From positions 164,672,001-164,736,000 of the forward strand of contig OX597816.1 of the NCBI GenBank assembly GCA_951406725.2: a stretch of DNA of 64,000 nt, read 5' to 3'. Under the pieces are notes generated by a model that was given only the letters and a program-made list of their open reading frames with translations, was not told the DNA's origin and searched no databases. This DNA comes from Octopus vulgaris (lineage: Eukaryota). A program made the position numbers and the translations under genes. Below, one piece after another: positions 15,436-60,858 of this stretch (positions are counted from its first letter, which is position 1; every line of letters starts with the position of its first letter).

Positions 15436-15828
15436 TAAAATATAAAATATTTATTTATACACAAAAATAGGGGTATGTATACATGTATACACATACATGA
15501 ACAAATGCATGGAGGAGGTACTCCAGTGTGACCCCTAGCTGATTCGTTGGTCCAGCGCAGTAGTTTTGACTGGGGAGTAAGACAACGACGTCGAAACACC
15601 TTACACTGGTGACGGGTGAATCATGTGTGTTATGGACACACATGGACTAAAAGAAGGGGACGAAAAACAACACCGATCAGATATTCACACTAGAATCTGC
15701 AAGATCGTATTAGGAGTGCATAGACACGTTATTATTTTTGGTGACTTACGATACAACAAATATTTATTTATACACAAAAATAGGGGTATGTATACATGTA
15801 TACACATACATGAACAAATGACGAGTAC

Positions 15829-16813
15829 AGTCCTCTTGTTCCACCACCCATACATTTTTTATGGAGCGAATTTTACTCACAAAGTTTTCATCAATCCGAG
15901 GTTATTACGCAGTGGGAGCGAACCCGGAACCACATAATTAGCACTGGGCACAACCCATCGCCCATCTTTATACCCAATGACGACCACGTAAACAGTCAAA
16001 TATTAGGAAGTCCGTACGTCATAAACCACTCCTCGGTCCCTGCATGGCCAAAACATTTTAAATCTCAACGACCAAGTCCTCTTGTTCCACCACCCATACA
16101 TTTTTTATGGAGCGAATTTTACTCACAAAGTTTTCATCAATCCGAGGTTATTACGCAGTGGGAGCGAACCCGGAACCACATAATTAGCACTGGGCACAAC
16201 CCATCGCCCATCTTTATACCCAATGACGACCACGTAAGCAGTCAAATAGTAGGAAGTCCGTACGTCATAAACCACTCCTCGGTCCCTGCATGGCCAAAAC
16301 ATTTTAAATCTCAACGACCAAGTCCTCTTGTTCCACCACCCATACATTTTTTATGGAGCGAATTTTACTCACAAAGTTTTCATCAATCCGAGGTTATTAC
16401 GCAGTGGGAGCGAACCCGGAACCACATAATTAGCACTGGGCACAACCCATCGCCCATCTTTATACCCAATGACGACCACGTAAGCAGTCAAATAGTAGGA
16501 AGTCCGTACGTCATAAACCACTCCTCGGTCCCTGCATGGCCAAAACATTTTAAATCTCAACGACCAAGTCCTCTTGTTCCACCACCCATACATTTTTTTA
16601 TGGAGCGAATTTTACTCACAAAGTTTTCATCAATCCGAGGTTATTACGCAGTGGGAGCGAACTCGGAACCACATGATTAGCACTGGGCACAAGACATCGC
16701 CCATCTTTGCACCCAATGACGATCACGTAAGTAGTCAAGTAGTAGGAAGTCCGTACGTCATAAACCACTCCTCGGTCCCTGCATGGCCAAAACATTTAAA
16801 ATCTCAACGACCA
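15829..16813. repeat. 246 bp tandem repeat, 4 copies
   Basis: agtcctcttgttccaccacc recurs at 15829, 16075, 16321 and 16567; units nearly identical. Confidence 0.95.
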
Positions 16814-17189
16814 TACCTATTTCAACAGAGAATAAACAGCAAATATTTTAAACACACGGTCATGTATATATACAGTACTGGATTTAACTACAATCTACAT
16901 TATACTACCAAACAGCCGTCGATTCTGCTCGTAATGGCTTGCCAGGGTTAGATTACAAACTGCATATAAGGTTGTGACATAAATATCTGGCATATCAAGG
17001 TCGCCGTCGTTGTTCCGTGCATTCAGTGCAATATACTTAATTCAGAAAACACTGGTTTGTGTAATACGAGGAAAGTACTTAGACGTATATTTTGGCACTG
17101 CCATTAATTAATTAATAATAATATTAATATTTATAATGATGATGATAACAACAACAACAATAATAATAATAATAATAATCATAATAATA

Positions 17190-19186: not shown

Positions 19187-20531
19187 ATATATTTATACAC
19201 GTGAGTATATAGTAAATATACATACGAAGGTAGCGAGCTGGCTGAATCGTTAGCACGCTTGATGAATTTACTTAGCGGTATTTCGCCTGTCGCTACCTTG
19301 TGAGTTCAAATTCCATCGACTTTGCTTTTCGTCCTTTCGGGGTCGATAAATTAAGTACCAGTAAAACACTGGGATCGATGTAATCGATTATCCACTTCCC
19401 CAAATTTCAGACCTTGTTTTGTTTTGTTTGTTTCTTCTCGAGCCACGCCTGGCTCATTACCGGTTTCATTGGCGTAAAGGTTCCCCACCTGGACGGCACG
19501 CGGTCCGTCGCAGGTGAGCTGCGAGATGCAGGAGGAAATAGTGAGAGAAAGTTGTGGCGAAAGAGTCATCAGAAGTTCGCCATTACCTTCTGCCGGAGCC
19601 GCATGGTGCTTAGGAGTTTCGCTCATAAACACAGATATCGCCCGGTCTGAGATTCGAACCCGCGATCCCCCGACCGCTGCTCTAACCACTAGGCCATGTG
19701 CCTCCACTGTACCTATAGTAGAAAGGTTTATTGTTAGTCAAATGAAAAGCAGCGAACTGGCAACATTGTTAACATGCCGTATAAAATGATTAGCGGCATT
19801 TCAACTGCCGCTACATTCTGAGTTCAAATTCCGCCGAGGTCGACTTTGCCTTTCATCCTTTCGGGGTCGATTAAATAAGTACCAGTTACGCACTGGGGTC
19901 AAAGTAATCGACTTAATCCGTTTGTCTGTCCTTGTTTGTCCTCTGTGTTTAGCCCCTTGTGGGTAGTAAAGAAATAGGTATTTCGTCTGTCTTTACGTTC
20001 TAAGTTCAAATACTACGGAGAGCAACTTTGTCTTTCATCTTTTTGGGGTAGATTAAAATAAGTACCCGTTGAACACTGGTGTCGGTGTGAACTTGAAATC
20101 CGTATCGTTAACACTCAGGATAAAACGCGTAACAGCATTTCATCTGACTTTACGTTCTGAGTTCAAATGCTCTCGAGGTCGATTTTGCCTTTCGGGGGTT
20201 GATGATATAAGAACTAGGTTTAGCAGGCCTTTAGTAGGAAGGATTAATAGTGAAATGGTCTGTTATTTAATCATGTGACTAACCGATTGCTTGCTTAATC
20301 ACTCGGTTAATCACTCAATCAGGATTTTCTAAGTCCTTTCGTCAGCATTTGCGCCCTCATCAATCACAATGACCTTTCTACCCCAGGTTGGAGTAGAGAG
20401 AGCATGTCATTGAAGAGGTCGTCAAATGGCGACGAAAGGACTTTGACAAAGCTAACTGACTGATCGGCCGAACTATTGATCAACCAGTCGATTAGTTAAC
20501 TGGTTAAATGTTATCGAATTGACTAATAATG

Positions 20532-26385: not shown

Positions 26386-26803
26386 ATATAATTAGTGAAT
26401 GGAAGAAATGGAGTTGAACGAAGATTGTACAGAATTCCTTTTATTACATTCTACACATGTTTCAAAGGCCACAATTTTCCAAATTCTGATTAAATAAGGA
26501 TACCATATTGCAGCTTTCTCTTCAGGAAAAACCAGGAATTACGTTGATTTCAACGTACATTGATAAACAGTTTACCCATGGGCTCTTAAGGAGCGTCCTC
26601 GTTCGAATTGCTTTGCTGCGCCTCTGTTTTGTTTTGTTCTGACAACGTAATTCCTGGTTTTTCCTGAAGAGAAAGCTGCAATATGGTATCCTTATTTAAT
26701 CAGAATTTGGAAAATTGTGGCCTTTGAAACATGTGTAGAATGTAATAAAAGGAATTCTGTACAATCTTCGTTCAACTCCATTTCTTCCATTCACTAATTA
26801 TAT
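26386..26803. repeat. 161 bp perfect inverted repeat with 96 bp spacer, one HHR per arm
   Basis: Arms 26386-26546 and 26643-26803 are reverse complements; right arm runs into (TA)n. Confidence 0.9.
26661..26740 (+). ncRNA. Type I hammerhead with long helix II and palindromic helix III (mirror copy 26449-26528, minus)
   Basis: UUC-CUGAAGA-G-AAAGCUGCAAU..AUUGUGGCCUUU-GAAA-CAUGUG-UA-GAA; helix I only 3 bp. Confidence 0.6.
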
Positions 26804-26902
26804 ATATATATATATATATATATAGGTAAACAGTAAAAATAATTACAGACATGGACAAGAACATGAAACGCCACAGAGACGACACAAGAACCACAGGACG
26901 GG

Positions 26903-27049
26903 ACATTCGAAGCCCTCAGTCATCAGTCAAGAACCAGATCATCTTAGCAATTTCGGCTGATTAATCTTGAGATTGCTCCGATATGGGCAGCCCGCCAAGG
27001 AAAATCTAAGCCAAGTGCATTAGATCCCCTGGAAGAAAGCTTCGAATGT
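26903..27049 (-). ncRNA. Non-circularly permuted hammerhead ribozyme, complete copy (second subfamily)
   Basis: 15 bp closing helix; hairpin; II GGCUG/CAGCC; P0 CCAUAUC/GAUCUGG; III AGCAAU/AUUGCU; AUC site; I UCAAGA/UCUUGA; CUGAUGA at 26926-26920; lies in (TA)n-flanked element 26824-27520. Confidence 0.8.
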
Positions 27050-27516
27050 ATACAACACGAGGACGGAAAACGAACGAAGTACACGAACAAAAATACAGAA
27101 TACGTGACAACAATAAGAATACAAAAACGTAAAAACAATAACGGTAAAAATAAAGTATAAAAAATAAACAACAAAACACAACCAGGACGTAGGACAAGGG
27201 TCTTTCGACAGGACGAATTGAGTATGGGGCTGGCTTATGAAGTTGTGCCTAATGGCCACAGGGAGACGAACAAGTACGTGTTGCTTCAGCGGCTGCTGGA
27301 ACGAAAAGAGCGCTCAACAGCGGCTAGCGGTCACGTGAGAACAAAAGACAAGAGAAAGGGACAGATGAAAAGAGAGAGAAGGTGGACGAGGGAGGAGAAG
27401 AAAGAGACAGATCGAGGGGGCTGGAGGTGAGAGAGATAGAGAAACGTAGAAGGGGGGGGGGGAAGACGGATGGAGAGGGAAAGAAAGGAGGGGGAATAAG
27501 GGAGGAGAGAGAGAGA

Positions 27517-30721: not shown

Positions 30722-32070
30722 TTGTTTGACTTATCTAGTCATGCTTTATTTCATATAGAAAGCGGAGGAGGATGGAGGACGATGGAGGAGGAGGTAAAAG
30801 TGAGATAAAGCGAGCTAGCATACGAGTGCATATACTAGGCTTGGCGGTAGGAACTGAGTAAGTGTATGTATGCTATAACTGGTGTTCTGTTGGTTACGAC
30901 GACGAGGGCTCCAGTTGATCCGATGAGCAGAACAGCCTGTTTCATGAAATTAAACGTATAAGTGGCCAAGCACTCTACGGACATGTCTACCCATCTCTTT
31001 ACTACCCACAAGGGGCTAAACACAGAGAAGACAAACAAGGACAGACAAACGGATTAAGTCGATTCTATCGACCCCAGTGCGTAACTGGTACTTATTTAAT
31101 CGACCCCGAAAGGATGAAAGGCAAAGTCGACCTCGGCGGAATTGCGGTATACGAAATACCGCAAAGCATATCGCCCGTCGTGCTAACGTTTCTGCCAGCT
31201 CACCGCTTTATACCATTAACCTAGTTCTCGGGGAGATACAGCGTGACACAGATAGTGACAAGACTGGCCCTTTGAAATGCAGGTATTACTCGGTTTTGCC
31301 TGCAGATTGGACAGGAGTGATCTGAAAGACGCTTTATTTCACATTGCCCCATTCCACTCAGCTGGCACAAACGAGTATCTGTAATTCAAAGGGCCAGCCT
31401 TAACACGTTCTGTGTAACGCTGAATTCCCGAGAACTATATTAATGTTATACGTGTGTGTGGAGTACTCTGCCACTTACACGTTTGATTTCAAGAGCAGGT
31501 TATTCCTTTGATAGGAACCGACGACGGGGTGCCAGAAATAAGAAGCTTATAAAGTGGGAGTCCTATTATGGCTGTTGCTGTTGTTGCTCCTGCATACTTG
31601 TTTTGGTCTAGGGCTCAAAAACTAGGACCCAAAAACCCGAAGCGATTTCCACGGCGTATAAATGAATGAACTTAAAGCAGTCGCCTCTAAATGGTGCCCG
31701 GTTTGTCACGCGGCTAGGTTCCCAATTATTTACATGAGAAATGTTTTGTTCAAGAACACCACACACTGCCTGGTCTAGGAATCGAAATCAAGGTCTTACG
31801 ATCTTGAGTGCAACAATTCAACCACTAGCCCGAGCGCTCTCACTTCAGTTTCGGTAAATTTTCACTATTACATCCGAATGACTTTGAGACGGAAAATTCA
31901 TGTTTTTCTTATGGTTTTCGATGGCTTTTGAACAAATCTGACAACTAAAACCGCCGGATATCACTTATTCTTTAGGGAAACATTCATCTTCAAAGTGAGA
32001 TGAGTGTCAAACATCAATGCAATTACCATTAGAAACAGAATGAAATGGTATGAAATGATTATTTCATCCG

Positions 32071-35049: not shown

Positions 35050-35115
<66 letters not shown>

Positions 35116-35198
35116 GGTCCCGGGTTGATTCGGGGTTAACCACAGTAAATAAGGTACTCAATACATAGTAGAGTAAAATTAATTTATTATATAGAAGG

Positions 35199-35249
35199 AG
35201 CTTCTACAGGACTAGAACTGTTTCATTCAAGAGAAATCTTCAGGAAGCT
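35199..35249 (-). ncRNA. Type I hammerhead ribozyme
   Basis: AGCUUC-CUGAAGA-U-UUC(UCUU)GAA-U-GAAA-CAG(UUCUAGUC)CUG-UA-GAAGCU. Confidence 0.75.
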
Positions 35250-35398
35250 GCTACATCAGGATGGTCGAAGAAGAACGATCTCCATCGAATTCTTTTGATG
35301 AACTCATCAGTCCGTCTAATGAGGGCTTTTTGGTACTGTTTCCTTGGTGGGATAGTAATGTTCTTCAGGGAAGTGTCGAGGTCGATTCTTGTCAGCAT
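35240..35398 (-). pseudogene. 52-codon N-terminal fragment of a Penelope-like retroelement ORF
   Basis: MLTRIDLDTSLKNITIPPRKQYQKALIRRTDEFIKRIRWRSFFFDHPDVAAS*; resembles the SLKNIP..Y...LI....FIKR.RW..FF N-terminal motif I recall from PLE RT proteins. Confidence 0.6.
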
Positions 35399-35585
35399 TT
35401 TTTCTTGGTGATGGTTATAAGGGCACTAGGGTGTGCTAGGATATGTAGGTCCCGGGTTGATTCGGGGTTAACCACAGTAAATAAGGTACTCAATACATAG
35501 TAGAGTAAAATTAATTTATTATATAGAAGGAGCTTCTACAGGACTAGAACTGTTTCATTCAAGAGAAATCTTCAGGAAATCTTCA

Positions 35586-35640
35586 GGAGCTTCCTGAAGA
35601 TTTCTCTTGAATGAAACAGTTCTAGTCCTGTAGAAGCTCC
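35586..35640 (+). ncRNA. Type I hammerhead ribozyme (inverted copy)
   Basis: GGAGCUUC/GAAGCUCC helix I, CUGAAGA, GAAA, ACAG/CUGU helix III, GUA site. Confidence 0.75.
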
Positions 35641-35649
35641 TTCTATATA

Positions 35650-35740
<91 letters not shown>

Positions 35741-35800
35741 AAATACAAAATGGGACAACAAAACATCCAGATAGACGATACAAAGAAAGCAAGGACGGGT

Positions 35801-35943
35801 CATTCGAAGTTTTCTTTCCTCAGTCAAGTACCAGATTATCTTCGCCATTTCGGCTGATTATACTTGAGATTGCTCCAATCTGGCCAGTCCCAAGGGAAAA
35901 CTAAGCTAAGAGCATTAGATTCCTTGGAAGAAAGCAGCGAATG
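35801..35943 (-). ncRNA. Non-circularly permuted hammerhead, complete with mismatches
   Basis: Closing UUUCUU/AAGAAA; hairpin CCAAGG/CCUUGG; II GACUG/CAGCC; P0 CCAGAUU/AAUCUGG; III AGCAAU/AUGGCG; AUC site; I UCAAGUA/UACUUGA; CUGAGGA. Confidence 0.75.
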
Positions 35944-35992
35944 TATACAAAAACAAGGACGGAAAAAACGGACGATGTTACACAAATACAAT

Positions 35993-37185: not shown

Positions 37186-37219
37186 TGGAGAAGAGAAAAC
37201 AACGCGTGTGTTCGGTCAT

Positions 37220-37600
37220 ATAATAACAATATAATAAATAAAACATATGCATATATACATACATATATGTACATATTTACATCTACATGTATATATATAT
37301 GCATATATGAGTACAGGATACCACAAATAAACGTAGAACACAACGAGAAACGAAAACATATAATCAAACAAGGAAACGGGCTTCTTTTAACAACGAAAAA
37401 ACAGAGTACAGGACAAACAATACTATACAAGGAAAATTCCCCGTTTCCTTGTTTGATTTTATGTTTTCGTTTCTCGTTGTGTTCTACGTTTATTTGTGGT
37501 ATCCTGTACTCATATATGCATGAATATATATACATGTAGATGTAAGTATGTACATATATGTATGTATATATGCATATGTTTTATTTATTATATTGTTATA
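37220..37600. repeat. ~160 bp inverted repeat made from the tail of the permuted-HHR element
   Basis: 37220-37380 vs 37440-37600; homologous to the 13240-13454 tail; (TA)n on both sides. Confidence 0.85.
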
Positions 37601-37652
37601 TATATATATATATATATATATATTGATGTTTGTTCTCTAATCAAAATATATA

Positions 37653-40095: not shown

Positions 40096-40144
40096 TGATA
40101 ATAATAAAAATAATAATGAGAACCCAAGTTCAAAATTTCCCCCA

Positions 40145-40190
40145 GACACCTGATGAAGGCTGGAGGGTATATCAACCGAAACGTTGTGCT
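40145..40190 (+). ncRNA. Minimal type I hammerhead
   Basis: GACAC-CUGAUGA-A-GGCUG..CAACC-GAAA-CG-UU-GUGCU; homologue of 57962-58007. Confidence 0.6.
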
Positions 40191-41512
40191 AACAACAAAC
40201 AAAATGAGGAAAAATATCCGTCAAATGTAAATAATGTACATAATTCCTCATCTCTTAAATATAGAAATTAATTGGATCCTCATCGTCGAAAACGACGGAG
40301 ATCCACTACTTCGCCGCTTAATTTTGTCCACTCGAAAGAGATGAGAGGCACAATCAATTTATACTTTCATTGTTTTTTTATTCTTTTACGTGTTTCAGTC
40401 ATTTGACTGCGGCCATGCAACAACACCGCCCTTAGTCGAACAAATCGACCACAGGACTTGTTCTCTGTTAGCCTAGTACTTATTCTATCGGGCTATTGTG
40501 CCGAACCGCTAAGTTACGGGGACGTAAACACACCAACATCAGTTGTCAAGAGATGGCGTTGGGGTACAAGCACAGACACACATACACACATACACACATA
40601 TAAGTTTACAATGGGTTTCTTTCAGTTTCCGTCTACCAAATCCACTAATAAGGCTTTGGTCAGCCCAAGGCTATAGTAGATGTCACGCAGTGGGACTGAA
40701 CCCAGAACCATATGGTTGGAAAGCAATCTTATTACCACACAGTCACTCAACAAGATTCGAACTGAAATTTAAACTGATCCTTAATTCGTTGCTCTACTGA
40801 ATCTGCAGCAAACTCCCACCGCCACTATTAAATGCTGTCGTCCCCGCCCTGAGGTCTATTTACAGTTCAGAGAAGACCATGTGGAAAATCTATATCTGTG
40901 TATTTACTTGACCTCGTAGAAATAACAACCGAATCTCCCTCAGCTTTGACTCAATTATCATACCAAAGGAGGACAATTTGAATAATGTAGACCTAGATAT
41001 ATTCATGAGTGAACATAAGATCGGATGATCACTGATGGAACGACTTTAGTCAAAGGTTGGATCAATCAGAGCAGAAGAGAGATCTAACTGAACGACAATC
41101 ACGACAACAAAGAAACTGGCTCTCTGTCGGTTGCAACATGTGTTCCAGTTGATCCGATCAACGGAACAGCCTGCTCGTGAATCGAATACCCTAATCACTA
41201 AGCCACGCGTTTTCACGACAACAACAGCAGCAAAAACAACAGCAACAATAACTATAACCATAACTTCAATTTTTCTATTCTACTCTAGGCACAAGGCCCG
41301 AAATTTTGGGGGAGGGGGCCAGTCGATTAGATCAACTCCAGTACGCAACTGGTACTTCATTTATTGACCCCGAAAGCATGAAAAGCCAAAGTCGACCTTG
41401 GCGTAATTTGAACTCAGAACGTAAACACAGGAGAAATACCGCTAAACATTTCGCCCGGCGTGCTAACGTTTCTGCCAGCTTGCCGCCTTAAATCATACCT
41501 CAGTTTGGAAAT

Positions 41513-46310: not shown

Positions 46311-46320
<10 letters not shown>
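46131..46320 (+). mobile_element. (TA)n-flanked deleted relative of the 26.2-26.8 kb HHR element
   Basis: Shares gtttaaccgatacc..gtagcaaaaatcacagcag with 26281 and GAAA-CACGUG-UA-GAA plus tail with 26726. Confidence 0.7.
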
Positions 46321-46400
<80 letters not shown>

Positions 46401-46590
46401 AATATAAGAAGTGGTCCTATTTCAGTTAATCCAAAAGGTTTCAACCACGAAAATGTAGAATGAAAGTCAGTAATTCGTACGATTCGTACTGACTTTCATG
46501 GGAAACATGTATTTTCGTGGTTGAAACCTTTTGGATTAATCTGGTGCTAGAGTGAGCCATATAGTGACCACTCTCTTATATTTATTTTGC

Positions 46591-46622
<32 letters not shown>

Positions 46623-46632
46623 TAATATATAT

Positions 46633-46769
<137 letters not shown>

Positions 46770-48613: not shown

Positions 48614-48696
48614 TAGCACGAGTGGGGTTCGAACCCACGCGGACATTCGTCCATTGGAACTTAAGTCCAACGCCTTAACCACTCGGCCATCGTGCT
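48614..48696 (-). tRNA. tRNA-Leu-TAA: tRNA-Leu (anticodon UAA)
   Basis: 83 nt cloverleaf: AGCACGA/TCGTGCT acceptor, TTGGA-CTTAAGT-TCCAA anticodon arm, long variable arm, GGTTCGAACC, followed by a T9 terminator. Confidence 0.96.
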
Positions 48697-48819: not shown

Positions 48820-48902
48820 TAGCACGAGTGGGGTTCGAACCCACGCGGACATTCGTCCATTGGAACTTAAGTCCAACGCCTTAACCACTCGGCCATCGTG
48901 CT
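48820..48902 (-). tRNA. tRNA-Leu-TAA: tRNA-Leu (anticodon UAA), identical second copy
   Basis: Identical 83 nt sequence followed by a T7 terminator. Confidence 0.96.
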
Positions 48903-49934: not shown

Positions 49935-50342
49935 TACTCTTTTACTCTTTTACTTGTTTCAGTCATTTGACTGTGGCCATGCTGGAGCACCGCCTTTAAT
50001 CGAGCAACTCGACCCCGGGACTTATTCTTTTTGTAAGCCCAGTACTTATTCTATCGGTCTCTTTTGCCGAACCGCTAAGTAACGGGGACATAAACACACC
50101 AGCATCGGTTGTCAAGCAATGCTAGGGGGACAAACACAGACACACATACACACACACGCTTATATATATATACATATATACGACGGGCTTCTTTCAGTTT
50201 CCGTCTACCAAATCCACTCACAAGGCTTTGGTCGGCCCGAAGCTATAGTAGAAGACACTTGCCCAAGGTGCCACGCAGTGGGACTGAACCCGGAACCATG
50301 TGGTTGGTAAACAAGCTACTTACCACACAGCCACTCCTGCGA
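49935..50342 (-). mobile_element. SINE family A, full length
   Basis: Reverse complement of family A. Confidence 0.85.
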
Positions 50343-50344
50343 CA

Positions 50345-51720
50345 CACACACACCTCCCGTTTCAGTAAAGTCATGGAGCGCATTGTGAGGAAAAGACTGA
50401 TTGAGTTCCTTGCGGACAATTACCTGCTTTCTGACACCCAGGAAGGAGCCCGGGAAGGAGCTGTCTTACACAGCTTCTTTGACACTATGGCCGAATCAAT
50501 TAATGAACTGCTCAAAATGTGGATGTGGTATAACCTCGACTTTGCGAAGGCACTTGACAAGATCGACCATGGAATGATATACCACAAAATACGGGGACTC
50601 GGCATCACCGGTAACGTCGGAGAGTGGCTGCATGATTTCCTAAAGGACAGGACCCAAACTGTAGCAGCCAACGGAGCTCTCTCCACAGAGACACCAATAG
50701 TGAGTGGAGTACCCCAGAGCATTGTGCTGGGGCCACTGCTTTTCGTGGTAGCCCTATCGGTTATGCCATCAGTGACAGAGGCAGCCATGCTTACCAGCTA
50801 TGCCGACGACACAGAAGTCGCACAGTCAGTCAAGGAAACCTCTGATGCTACGCTCTTGCAGAAAGATCTAGATACATGGGCTGATGATAACAACATGCAA
50901 TTTAATGCAAGTAAATTCCAGGCCCTCCGCTACCAGTTAAGCACTGCTCAGGAATCACGACATCAGTACATTGGACCATGTGAAGCAACGATCCCAGCAT
51001 CAAATACGGTCCTTGATCTTGGAACAGAAATGAGCAACAATGCCCCATTTCACACACATATCAACAAAAATGATAGCAGTATCCAGAAGACTGGTCGGTT
51101 GAATTCTGAGAACCTTCTGGACGAGGGACCAAGAAGCTATGATGTCACTATGGAAGTCATTTATCCTCAACCGACTGGACTACTGCTCTTAGCTATGGTC
51201 ACCTTATACTATAAGGATGATAGCAGAGCTTGAAGCAGTCCAGCGACATTACACATAGAAAATTGCATCAATGGAACGACTGAGCTACTGGGACCGATTG
51301 AAAGAGCTACGACTCTTTTCCCCGGAAGGAAGGCGGGAGAGGGATGTAGTGATATATATATGGAAGATACTGGAAGGCCTGGTACCAAACTTTGGAATAA
51401 AGAGCTATACAAGACCACGAACAGGACGTCACTGTGCTGTCTCCACTGCTTCATCTCGGGCAAGGACGATGTACTGCAATAGCTTGGTTTCAAGGGCCCA
51501 CAGCTGCTTAACTGTCTGCCGAAACATCTGAGGAGCCTCCATGGAGTGGGTGTAGACGTTTTCAAACACGAACTTGACCTCTGGCTCATCGAGATCCCAG
51601 ATGAGCCAATATTTAGGCAGGAAACTGAAAAGAGGGCAGTAACTTCGAACTCCTACCTTCACCAAAAGCCGCTCCGACAAAGGCGAAGGCGGTGCTCCAG
51701 CACGGCCACATAAAAAAATA
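50345..51720 (+). mobile_element. 5'-truncated CR1/L2-group LINE (RT domain, frameshifted)
   Basis: DFAKALDKIDH, SGVPQSIVLGPLLF, YADDT, WADDNNMQFNASK, LSYWDRLKELRLFS.E.RRER; A-rich 3' end. Confidence 0.9.
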
Positions 51721-53596: not shown

Positions 53597-53957
53597 CCAC
53601 ATAAACGCACATAAAAAAATAATGTCTTGTATTCTGCAGACAAAACAAACGCTTTATTAACTTTTAGTGTTCTAACAATACAATAAATAAGAATATAAAG
53701 CCTACCACATACGTGTATGTGTGCGTGTGTGTGTATGTGGGCTTGTAAATATATACATATAGTCATATACATACATAGACAAACACATACAGACACGCAC
53801 ACACACGTACGTACAGAAGTGCATCTGGAAAAACCATTTTCGTCTAAATAGATATTCAAACAACCTGTTTAGAACAGTAGAGATCCTATAGGAGGAACTT
53901 AGCTGTTCAAAACAAAATTTAAAGAACACATAAGGAAATATGAAAAAAAAAAAAATA

Positions 53958-54008
<51 letters not shown>

Positions 54009-54209
54009 GTTTATACAACACAGTTGCGAACGTGTGTGTGTGTGTGTGTGTGTGTGTGCAAGGGTGTGCGTATATATATCGTATAGACAACCGATGCGTA
54101 CAGGCACTGTGTTGATACGTACACAAAGGACTTAGCGGTTTGTTTGCCAATGATACAAATGTACACTCACATATGCATTATTTATACATATACATACATA
54201 TATACGTAC

Positions 54210-54258
<49 letters not shown>

Positions 54259-54330
54259 TATATATACACATGCATATATACACATATATATATATACATA
54301 CATACATACATACATATATATATATATATA

Positions 54331-54370
<40 letters not shown>

Positions 54371-55291
54371 GCACACATACATACATATGTGTATATATAG
54401 ATGTGTATATATATGTAAATATATATGTACGTATATATATGTATGTATACATATATATACATATACAAATACATATATATGCCAATATATATATACATAT
54501 AAGTTTATATGCATAGTTATGTATGTGTATATATACATATATGTGAATATACACCTACAGTAAATATGTTATATATACATGGGTTTATATACATATATAT
54601 GTGTGCGTGTGTGTGTATGTGGGCTTGTAAATATATACATATAGTCATATACATACATAGACAAACACATACAGACACGCACACACACGTACGTACAGAA
54701 GTGCATCTGGAAAAACCATTTTCGTCTAAATAGATATTCAAACAACCTGTTTAGAACAGTAGAGCAGCAGAAGAAGAAGAAGAAAAAGAAGAAGATGAAG
54801 AAGGAGGAGGAGGAGGAGGAGGTGAATAAGGAGGAGGAGAAGAAGAAGAAGTTGAAGAAGGAGGAGGAGGAGGAGGAGAAGGAATAGGAGGAGAATAAGA
54901 AGGAGGAAGAGAAGAAGAAGAAGAAGAAGAAGGAGAAAGAGAAGTTGAAGGAGGAGGAGGAGGAGAAGAAGAAGAAGAAGGAGGAGGAGGAGGAGTATAA
55001 GAAGAAGGAGGAGGGGAGGAGGAGGAGAAGAAGAAGAAGAAGAAGAAGGAGAAGAAGAAGGAGAAGAAGAAGGAGAAGAAGAAGGAGGAGGAGGAGAAGA
55101 AGAAGAAGAAGAAGAAGAAGAACAAGAAGAAGAAGAAGAAGAAGAAGAACAACAACACAAGAAACCCGATTGTTTTCCAACCTTGTACCACGTAAAATCT
55201 GATTATTTTAATTATCAACTTGAATATAATACATTTAAGGATAGATTCAGGTCAGGCTTTATTAGAAACATCTGTTTAAGACTAATATCGT

Positions 55292-55349
<58 letters not shown>

Positions 55350-55740
55350 CACACATACACATATGTATATAGCCACAGTTATGTATGTGTATATATACAT
55401 ATATGTGAATATACACCTACAGTAAATATGTTATATATACATGGGTTTATATACATATATATATGTGTGTGTGCATGTATTGTGTGTGTGTGCGAATATG
55501 TTTATATATATATATGTACACATATGTCTTTTATATTCTACACATGTGCACGCGCACATGCACACTCACACATGCAAACACACAAGCGTGGCACCTTACG
55601 CCAGTGTCTTCTACTGTAGTCTAAGGCTGCCCCAAACCTTGTGAGTGGATTTGGTAGGGGGTCGATTTGTTCGACTAAACAAACCCGTGAAGGCGGTGCT
55701 CCAGGATGGCCACGGTGACATGACTGAAACAAATAAAAGA

Positions 55741-55807
<67 letters not shown>

Positions 55808-56155
55808 AATAGAGTGAATGAATTATCCTATGTTTATCGTCAGCATGGAAAATTCGTTTAACCGAAAACTGGGTAACAAATTCACGTCAAAAACACGGTT
55901 GAAGCGACCTGTCCAAGGGTAGAAACTCCGGGTTCATGTGCAGAAATTTGTGTGTTGTATATGAATAAATGAAGAAGAAGGAGGGGGAGAAGAAGAAGAA
56001 GAAGAACAACAACAACAACAACAAGAAACCCGATTGTTTTCCAACCTTGTACCACGTAAAATCTGATTATTTTAATTATCAACTTGAATATAATACATTT
56101 AAGGATAGATTCAGGTCAGGCTTTATTAGAAACATCTGTTTAAGACTAATATCGT

Positions 56156-56243
<88 letters not shown>

Positions 56244-56332
56244 CACACATACACATATGTATATAGCCACAGACGTGGCTGTGTGGTAAGAAGCTTGGTT
56301 CTTGTATCATCCTTGTATCATTATCATTCATC

Positions 56333-56421
<89 letters not shown>

Positions 56422-56432
56422 CATACATACAT

Positions 56433-56478
<46 letters not shown>

Positions 56479-57011
56479 TCTTTTTTTTTCTCTTTACTTG
56501 TTTCAGTCATTTTGACTGCGGCCATGAAACTGAAAGAAGCCCTTCGTATATATGTGTGTGTTTCCTGTCTACCGATGTTGGTGTATTTACGTCCTCGTAA
56601 CTCAGCGATTCGGCATAAGAGACCGAACCGCTAAGTAACGGGGACATAAACACACCAGCATCGGTTGTCAAGCAATGCTAGGGGGACAAACAAATAAAAG
56701 AATACATACATATATATAAAGTTAATCCAAACAAGAAAGGGCTTCTTTCAGTTTCCGTCTGCCGAATCCACTCACAAGGCATTGGTCGGCCCGGGGCTAT
56801 AGCAGAAGACACTTGCCCAAGATGCCACGCAGTGGGATTGAACCAGAACCATGTGGTTGGTTAGCAAGCTACTTACCACACAGCCACTCCTGCGCCTATA
56901 TATATATATATATAACGGGAAGGTTTACGAAAATAAACAAAAGACGAAGGCAGGTGGAGTACAAACAAACAAATGTATTAGTATGGCGCTCAGGAATAGA
57001 AATAGGACAAG

Positions 57012-57356: not shown

Positions 57357-57961
57357 ATACACAATAATTAATATTAATATTAGGGAAGGTATTTCCAAGT
57401 CCACAGGCGAGAGAAGTTCCATTTAGTGGTACTAAAATGAATTACTCACGGTATTATATACATATATATACAGATAGGTTTTTAAGAGACAGAATCACCC
57501 TCAAGCAACTCATATAGGACTAAATATTAAAATTATCAAAATCAATACCTACAATTCTTATTCCAAATTATCAAAATTAATACCTTCAATTCTTATTTCA
57601 AATCGTATACTTTACTACGCGCGTTGCTGAAATAGAATGTCTCTAAATACAATACCATATTAAAACGATTATATTGACAATCTTCAGGTGTAGCATATAT
57701 GAACTTATTTTGCTATTTACATCCTATATAACTAAATTTACATCCTATATAAACTAAATTTATAAAACTAGAAGTTGTTGGAATAATTTTACTTTAGTAA
57801 ATAATGAACAGAAATGTGGAATAAAAGTAGGAAAAAGAAATGTTAGTAAAAACAAATGTTAACTTATTTGTATGGTAATTTTCTTTCCATGAATTAAACA
57901 TGGCTACCAGCAATCATATAATCCAGCATTGAGAGCTACTTTTTGGGGGAGATACATATAA

Positions 57962-58007
57962 GACACCTGAAGAAGGCTGGAGGGTATATCAGCCGAAACG
58001 TTGTGTT
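57962..58007 (+). ncRNA. Minimal type I hammerhead
   Basis: GACAC-CUGAAGA-A-GGCUG..CAGCC-GAAA-CG-UU-GUGUU; AACGUU palindrome. Confidence 0.7.
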
Positions 58008-58071
58008 AACAATAAACAAGATGGGGACAAATATCCGTCGAATATAAATAATGTAAATAATGTACATAATT

Positions 58072-60587: not shown

Positions 60588-60638
60588 GAAATATTAAATT
60601 TCTAAATATCTCATAGAGATATGTGCGGGATTGAGCGA

Positions 60639-60858
60639 TACAGTGGTTGTATACTGTCAACTTAACGTGACAGTCCTGTAAGGGAATTACACCACCGCTA
60701 TTTAGCCCTAGGAAGCATCGACGAACGGGAATTACACCACTGCTATTTAGCCCTAGGAAGCATCGACGCTTCGTCGATGCTTCCTAGGGCTAAATAGCGG
60801 TGGTGTAATTCCCGTTACGGGACTGTCACGTTAAGTTGACAGTAGACAACCACTCTAT
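60639..60858. repeat. Foldback palindrome with internal ~44 bp duplication
   Basis: 60641-60725 is the near-perfect reverse complement of 60770-60854; 60727-60768 duplicates the inner left arm. Confidence 0.88.

Follow-up and report, generated by a model that had tools for sequence, protein, structure and literature searches.

The window, a 64,000-nucleotide (64-kb) stretch of Octopus vulgaris contig OX597816.1, contains an element of about 547 bases (positions 35109–35655) that is derived from a Penelope-like element (PLE). Judged from its sequence, it is a recent, non-coding remnant of a PLE of the Hydra clade. We put at about 0.95 the probability that it is of Hydra origin and was made by reverse transcription, with a Hydra-clade PLE family supplying the RT-endonuclease and a (TA)n tract serving as target. 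Only the jump from about codon 48–52 of the ORF to a hammerhead ribozyme (HHR) is unusual, and we lean slightly towards a one-off template jump during a single insertion as its cause. The features are as follows.

35053–35112, no strand: left (TA)n tract, target microsatellite; pure AT run of 60 nt, ending at 35112
35109–35246, minus: 3′ repeat, pLTR copy B; HHR followed by 96 nt up to the long terminus; 100% identity to 35441–35578
35155–35175, minus: tail hairpin, copy B; 5-bp stem, the same stem as in Hydra loci
35199–35249, minus: HHR-B, complete type I hammerhead from the descriptor scan, in the form of published Hydra HHRs; predicted cut after 35205
35205–35536, minus: notional 332-nt monomer between predicted cleavage sites; its release here is disfavoured by folding
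35240–35398, minus: 52-codon stub of a Hydra PLE ORF; homology to about residue 46–49, HHR junction between codon 48 and the stop
35399–35440, minus: leader, 42 nt, long terminus to ATG
35441–35578, minus: 5′ repeat, pLTR copy A; identical to copy B
35487–35507, minus: tail hairpin, copy A
35533–35579, minus: HHR-A, 5′-truncated, with a 4-bp helix I; predicted cut after 35537
35566–35591, no strand: foldback centre; an 11-nt stretch duplicated in tandem, then the palindrome AGCT; read directly
35585–35655, plus: inverted arm with HHR-C; core at 35594, predicted cut after 35632; the short AT-rich terminus closes the arm 23 nt beyond that cut
35654–35733, no strand: right (TA)n tract; pure AT run of 80 nt from 35654

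The two direct repeats are 138 nt each, are offset by 332 nt and show no difference. The inverted arm (71 nt) is identical to the 3′ copy at 70 of 71 positions, and its last 65 nt are the start of the direct repeat without a change. The two arms of the element end differently, 23 and 96 nt past the cleavage site, which gives two 3′ ends 73 nt apart. At the foldback centre, the 11-nt duplication (35566–35576 and 35577–35587) adjoins AGCT. Any target-site duplication is unreadable within (TA)n. An earlier note on this DNA had described two tandem HHRs 332 nt apart with an inverted HHR, a 52-aa ORF ending on the UGA of the next HHR core, and essentially identical repeats marking a recent element. 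All of this holds (cores at −35575, −35243 and +35594; ORF −35398..35240). The left end, placed there at 35111, is nearer 35109. The order given there, HHR, leader, ORF, HHR, leader and (TA)n, stands for the HHRs, the ORF and the (TA)n, but what follows HHR-B is a 96-nt 3′ end, and the leader is the 42-nt segment. Likewise, the repeats carrying the two tandem HHRs are identical as it said, but HHR-A itself is incomplete.

The three HHRs are of type I, with cores starting at −35575 (A), −35243 (B) and +35594 (C). HHR-B has a helix I of 6 bp, a helix II of 3 bp with U·U at its base and a helix III of 4 bp. A relaxed descriptor scan gave five HHR-like matches in the window, three of them HHR-A, HHR-B and HHR-C, and none in the reversed sequence. 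Rfam recognised no HHR in the element, whether gathering or E-value thresholds were applied; the basis of the HHR call is therefore custom descriptors together with likeness to published Hydra HHRs. The Rfam E-value matches on the element were rejected as hairpin artefacts of the palindrome. In isolation, the HHRs fold no better than shuffled sequences (z 0.14, 0.29 and −1.45). The U·U at the base of helix II recurs in 14 of the 26 rows of the published Hydra HHR table (available part of PMC8557442), and the helix III stem in 4 of the 26, both counted by eye; the 8-nt loop III is longer than in those rows. The HHR form thus agrees with a Hydra placement and would support it independently of the peptide.

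The ORF encodes 52 aa and terminates on the UGA within HHR core B. A meaningful stop codon within the HHR core was considered and rejected as a 1-in-3 frame coincidence. The earlier note had suggested searching the 52 aa against PLE proteins. With phmmer they match 295 proteins at E≤1e-3 (best 1.9e-11, 59% identical), mostly at the N-termini of the matched proteins, and hhalign gives a probability of 98.8. The motif RW[KR] is present in 135 of the 150 matches listed (of 295); in the stub it is RWR at residues 38–40. Full-length relatives were fetched with one 713-aa match as the query, which gave 2,340 relatives among 8,000 candidates scored, 120 of them listed. Among these 120, RW[KR] occurs in 117, DK[TS] in 118, the catalytic DD motif in 120, CxCX5C in 116, CxxC near the C-terminus in 119, and GxK[FY] within the first 150 aa in 2. 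This motif set matches the Hydra-clade diagnostics, (TA)n targeting included, in section 11 of the available text of PMC8557442. The stub aligns to positions 3–46 of a 711-position HMM of the full-length relatives (E 6e-16), and the window has no further fragment of an ORF of this kind.

The element has the Hydra-type N-terminus with RW[KR]; DKT, the RT core, the CxCX5C linker and the C-terminal GIY-YIG were found neither in this copy nor elsewhere in the window. We identify the peptide as the N-terminus of a Hydra-clade PLE RT-endonuclease, and the element is a derivative of that clade, not an autonomous member. The PLE origin proposed earlier is thus upheld and narrowed to the Hydra clade, for a recent element that has lost RT and EN. 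A Pfam scan of the 52 aa found 0 families, and scans of 12 and 7 relatives found no RT family and GIY-YIG in one of the seven; the RT/EN call therefore rests on motifs. A PDB sequence search with a full-length relative gave 0 matches. The parent of the stub was not found by word-indexed searches of longer and similar-length proteins, a negative of little weight. Hydra-1_Obim, in the available supplement of PMC8557442, is identical to the stub at 16 of 44 N-terminal residues (by eye), and the stub comes from a different family.

For comparison, we used 14 loci (L001–L014; 62,582 nt) encoding Hydra-like proteins, selected by RT motifs in one scan of public genome contigs. Their contigs are filed under bacterial MAGs and are most likely animal host contamination. 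A custom scan found HHRs in 9 of the 14. In all three loci having both an upstream HHR and an ATG, the two are 180, 192 and 221 nt apart, measured from the HHR core; the distance in the element is 177 nt. An intact 728-aa ORF lies between 391-nt pLTRs in L002. The native spacing from ORF stop to HHR is 80–194 nt (nine cases), and this stretch is missing from the element along with RT and EN. In the families of L005 and L006, short and long termini are about 65 nt apart (73 nt in the element). The arrangement of pLTR, tail and inverted 5′-truncated copy parallels L005, L006 and L011, and at L005 5042–5330 a (TA)n, a long arm, a foldback 9–14 nt from the HHR cores, a short arm and a second (TA)n form a cap equivalent to that of the element.

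Downstream of Hydra HHRs, a tail hairpin is conserved, at both positions listed above in the window and in L003, L005, L006, L008, L009 and L011. Its stem formed in the window and in seven of the eight locus segments folded, a count biased by the picking of segments by pattern. In the window, an A-U pair stands in place of G-C, which is a compensatory change. We took the stems from single folds and give no pair count, because the 5′ side of the hairpin was misaligned by MAFFT. The hairpin is a candidate signal for RT initiation or protein binding. Because the HHR form, the HHR-to-ATG spacing, the (TA)n, the tail hairpin and the foldback cap all recur in Hydra loci, the repeats, the cap and the (TA)n target are ordinary Hydra products, and they therefore argue against an artefact. 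No second stub-type element was found in the 14 loci (62,582 nt), a set chosen by RT motifs. L012 (1281–2469) has a repeat of about 310 nt in tandem and inverted copies, with a segment that looks tRNA-like by eye.

Among described systems, the Hydra-clade PLEs in the available part of Craig et al. 2021 (PMC8557442; Hydra-1_Obim, Hydra-1_Ajap) have in common with the element an N-terminal KNI..P and RW[KR], a type I HHR in the pLTR, a (TA)n target and a pLTR with an inverted 5′ cap. They differ from it in possessing RT, EN and a 3′ UTR upstream of the HHR, and in a tail of 30–40 nt against 73 nt. Four motifs from the window were absent from the supplement of Craig et al. in a text search, in which line breaks may hide matches. 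The same source describes non-autonomous Chlamys PLEs (MRC1) and the internally deleted Chlamys-3_cRei, short or deleted derivatives that keep their pLTRs as the element does; however, these belong to another clade, are mostly without HHRs and are multi-copy. Poseidon PAc of Anolis carolinensis (available part of PMC11167929) can be likened to the element in its tail, delimited by two internal sites of RT initiation past the HHR, and in its AT-rich targets. The PAc ORF starts inside the HHR, whereas the ATG of the element lies 177 nt past the core start, and the matching cis-region is therefore the tail plus the leader, not the ORF stub.

The position of the junction can be bracketed. Protein homology of the stub fades at residues 46–49, inside a variable loop, and the identity of HHR-B with the other HHR copies starts 6 nt ahead of core B, which places the junction about 6–15 nt from that core. 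The starts of copies A and C lie 3–9 nt from their own cores, so that all three modules begin within about 3–15 nt of the core, with only 3–6 nt in common upstream of it. Truncation within 15 nt of the core is also seen at L005 5201/5227 and at L011 8474 (15 nt). Other same-family comparisons in the Hydra loci have 41–223 nt in common upstream of the core (ungapped and thus lower bounds, and non-independent), and truncation at the HHR edge is therefore no strict rule. A junction at the 5′ edge leaves HHR-B with its whole helix I, as expected from selection for a working ribozyme, which counts against RT run-off.

We nevertheless favour a single event of RT run-off and template jump over a mini-family, because all three HHR modules begin about 3–15 nt from the core. 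In Poseidon, RT initiates internally at two sites near the pLTR–ORF junction and both AT-rich strands are nicked (available part of PMC11167929). Going by PLE biochemistry, both strands of the (TA)n would be nicked by the endonuclease; from either resulting 3′ end, cDNA synthesis would begin at one of two internal sites lying downstream of the HHR. The short-terminus cDNA would stop at the 5′ edge of the HHR. The long-terminus cDNA would stop there too, by run-off or stall, and then jump into the ORF near codon 48–52, perhaps guided by AGCT microhomology. After the jump, the ORF start, the leader, the tail and the HHR would be copied again up to a second stop at the HHR edge, where the long-terminus cDNA would slip by 11 nt and join the short-terminus cDNA head to head. 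The whole insert could be derived in this way from the first ~340 nt of the parent RNA. The product is what we observe; priming, jump and joining are deduced, and the mechanism is taken from another PLE clade (Poseidon). The earlier note had proposed that an internal deletion created a retrozyme-sized monomer. The loss of RT and EN and the 332-nt spacing agree with this, but a template jump at the HHR 5′ edge fits the junction better than a random internal deletion, and propagation is not supported (one copy in 64 kb, folding against a double cut).

The main competitor, to which we give clearly less credence than to the single event, is a propagating non-autonomous mini-Hydra. Its 332-nt unit would come as a multimer or circle from a master elsewhere and be moved in trans by a Hydra protein, with RT going 1.4 times round. 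The unit retains a complete HHR, the tail hairpin and the leader; its GC of 41% and its size, within the range of 170–400 nt, suit an animal retrozyme. There is precedent for non-autonomous PLEs that have pLTRs, and retrozymes have been proposed to descend from PLEs. The stub also deviates at near-invariant residues (positions 9, 15 and 41) although the repeats are identical. It has T where P stands in 101 of 101 full-length N-termini and scores below all 107 held-out full-length N-termini, which came from proteins picked for closeness to one query; this low score could reflect decay in an earlier non-coding master. Against such decay must be weighed the intact 728-aa ORF of L002, which scores even lower. 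No second copy of the element was found within the 64-kb window. A circle of the unit would keep a whole HHR, but its predicted fold is modest (51% paired, z −1.4, equalled by 5 of 60 shuffles), and retrozyme circles are described as highly self-paired (available part of PMC7229834).

Release of a monomer from this locus does not look easy either. Animal non-LTR retrozymes (PMC7229834; available part of bioRxiv 10.64898/2026.07.22.740005) resemble the element in their type I HHRs in direct orientation about 330 nt apart, their low GC and the absence of mobility coding. The element differs in having 1.4 units, a truncated first HHR, an inverted cap, an ORF remnant and a PLE-type HHR, and in showing no sign of copies in 64 kb, multimers or circles. 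Retrozymes are recognised by tandem units of about 150–450 nt with type I HHRs, of which the element offers a 332-nt spacing but only 1.4 units, by many copies per genome and abundant circular RNA, and by two consecutive complete HHRs that can free a monomer; here HHR-A has a helix I of only 4 bp. With ViennaRNA, which takes no account of tertiary contacts or protein help, simultaneous activity of both HHRs is penalised by about 80 kcal/mol in a read-through RNA, where one HHR is sequestered by the inverted arm; the cost is 14–16 kcal/mol if the RNA starts at 35579–35590. The Poseidon HHR needs protein help (available part of PMC11167929). Since the upstream HHR-A is truncated and paired with the inverted arm, the element is probably unable to release the 332-nt monomer, and the double cleavage suggested earlier is disfavoured by predicted folding at the locus. 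This copy is most likely a dead end, to go by the folding. We regard as tentative the combined idea that the 332-nt HHR unit, with the opening codons of a Hydra PLE gene still in it, is a retrozyme caught at birth, arisen by RT run-off and a jump into the ORF and since spread by a Hydra protein through the conserved tail hairpin.

The other explanations are improbable. A full-length Hydra copy could have been inserted and then have lost about 2 kb by deletion at the DNA level; the outer structure is a normal pLTR–ORF–pLTR with an inverted cap, as in L002, and an internally deleted PLE copy has been described (available part of PMC8557442). However, the breakpoint would sit no more than about 15 nt from the place at which the other two modules begin, a target with an estimated chance of about 1% (~15 of 2,200 nt), and 138-nt repeats with 0 differences leave little time, so that we consider this quite unlikely. 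Still less probable is retrotransposition of a spliced RNA, with a cryptic donor after CAG (codons 50–51) and its acceptor at the 5′ boundary of helix I. The junction does read as CAG followed by the inner helix I strand, and the intron of Drosophila virilis Penelope ends at the 5′ end of helix I (available part of PMC4209133), but the same AG is required for helix I pairing, and the published Hydra HHR table shows, by eye, no enrichment of AG immediately before the core. An assembly or read artefact, either a foldback read or a repeat collapsed between microsatellites, is equally improbable. Such an error would be invited by long (TA)n tracts enclosing perfect repeats and a palindrome, but the arms end at two Hydra-type termini known from unrelated genomes and an 11-nt duplication sits at the centre, as a random artefact would not produce.

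The window has a second HHR repeat family at 40144–40244 and 57961–58061 (both plus strand), whose copies are 90% identical, have a long helix II and begin their common sequence 6 nt before the core. It has no detectable sequence in common with the element and its HHR form is different, and it may well be PLE-related. The element had been suggested earlier to point to the class of enzyme that mobilises the local HHR elements, but it gives this no direct support: the single additional HHR family detected is dissimilar. Six further foldback palindromes (26386–26803, 37218–37605, 46318–46672, 60638–60858, 31209–31450 and 20265–20509) have arms of 72–87% identity. Of these, 26386–26803 and 37218–37605 adjoin (TA)n and resemble inverted inserts of PLE type. 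To the right of the element, after the (TA)n, lies another repeat (35767–35986; 80% identity to 26871–27087). Two identical tRNA genes with anticodon UAA (Leu) lie 206 nt apart on the minus strand (48614–48696 and 48820–48902). A 379-aa stop-to-stop frame at 50094–51233 (plus strand) with a YADD motif is presumably a decayed LINE-type RT. At 15814–16951 (plus strand) there is a tandem repeat of a few hundred bases, with a repeated peptide unit in the ORF list. At about 53700–56600, identical translated stretches recur (53702/54569 and 55266/56130), suggesting a local or assembly duplication.

Much of this architecture has precedents. HHRs in pLTRs and close inverted pairs (PMC4209133), and partial tandems, inverted caps, tails, and non-autonomous and internally deleted PLEs (PMC8557442), are described in the available parts of these papers. 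The proposal that retrozymes stem from PLEs is already in the literature: their mobilisation by PLEs is suggested in the available text of PMC7229834 and argued from pLTR homology in that of bioRxiv 10.64898/2026.07.22.740005, whose supplements may list ORF-bearing units. Octopus vulgaris has recently active Penelope families, according to the available part of PMC13282606, and the repeat library of that study could already hold the family of the element. In the openly readable literature, we found no report of a retrozyme with an ORF stub or of a Hydra tail hairpin.

Retrozyme origins and their mobilising enzyme are still argued from co-occurrence and pLTR similarity. The element illustrates a possible shrinkage of a PLE into a small ribozyme repeat. 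As a single dead copy it would be one more complex PLE insertion; even then, the PLE mechanism could be approached through two clues, the conserved tail hairpin and the recurrence of 5′ ends close to the HHR edge. Were the caught-at-birth reading true, a repeat of retrozyme size would be linked to a named enzyme clade through coding sequence, beyond pLTR likeness, and a minimal cis-RNA for Hydra retrotransposition would be defined. Such an ORF-bearing intermediate would offer a direct handle on these questions and a small substrate for tests of Hydra cis-signals.
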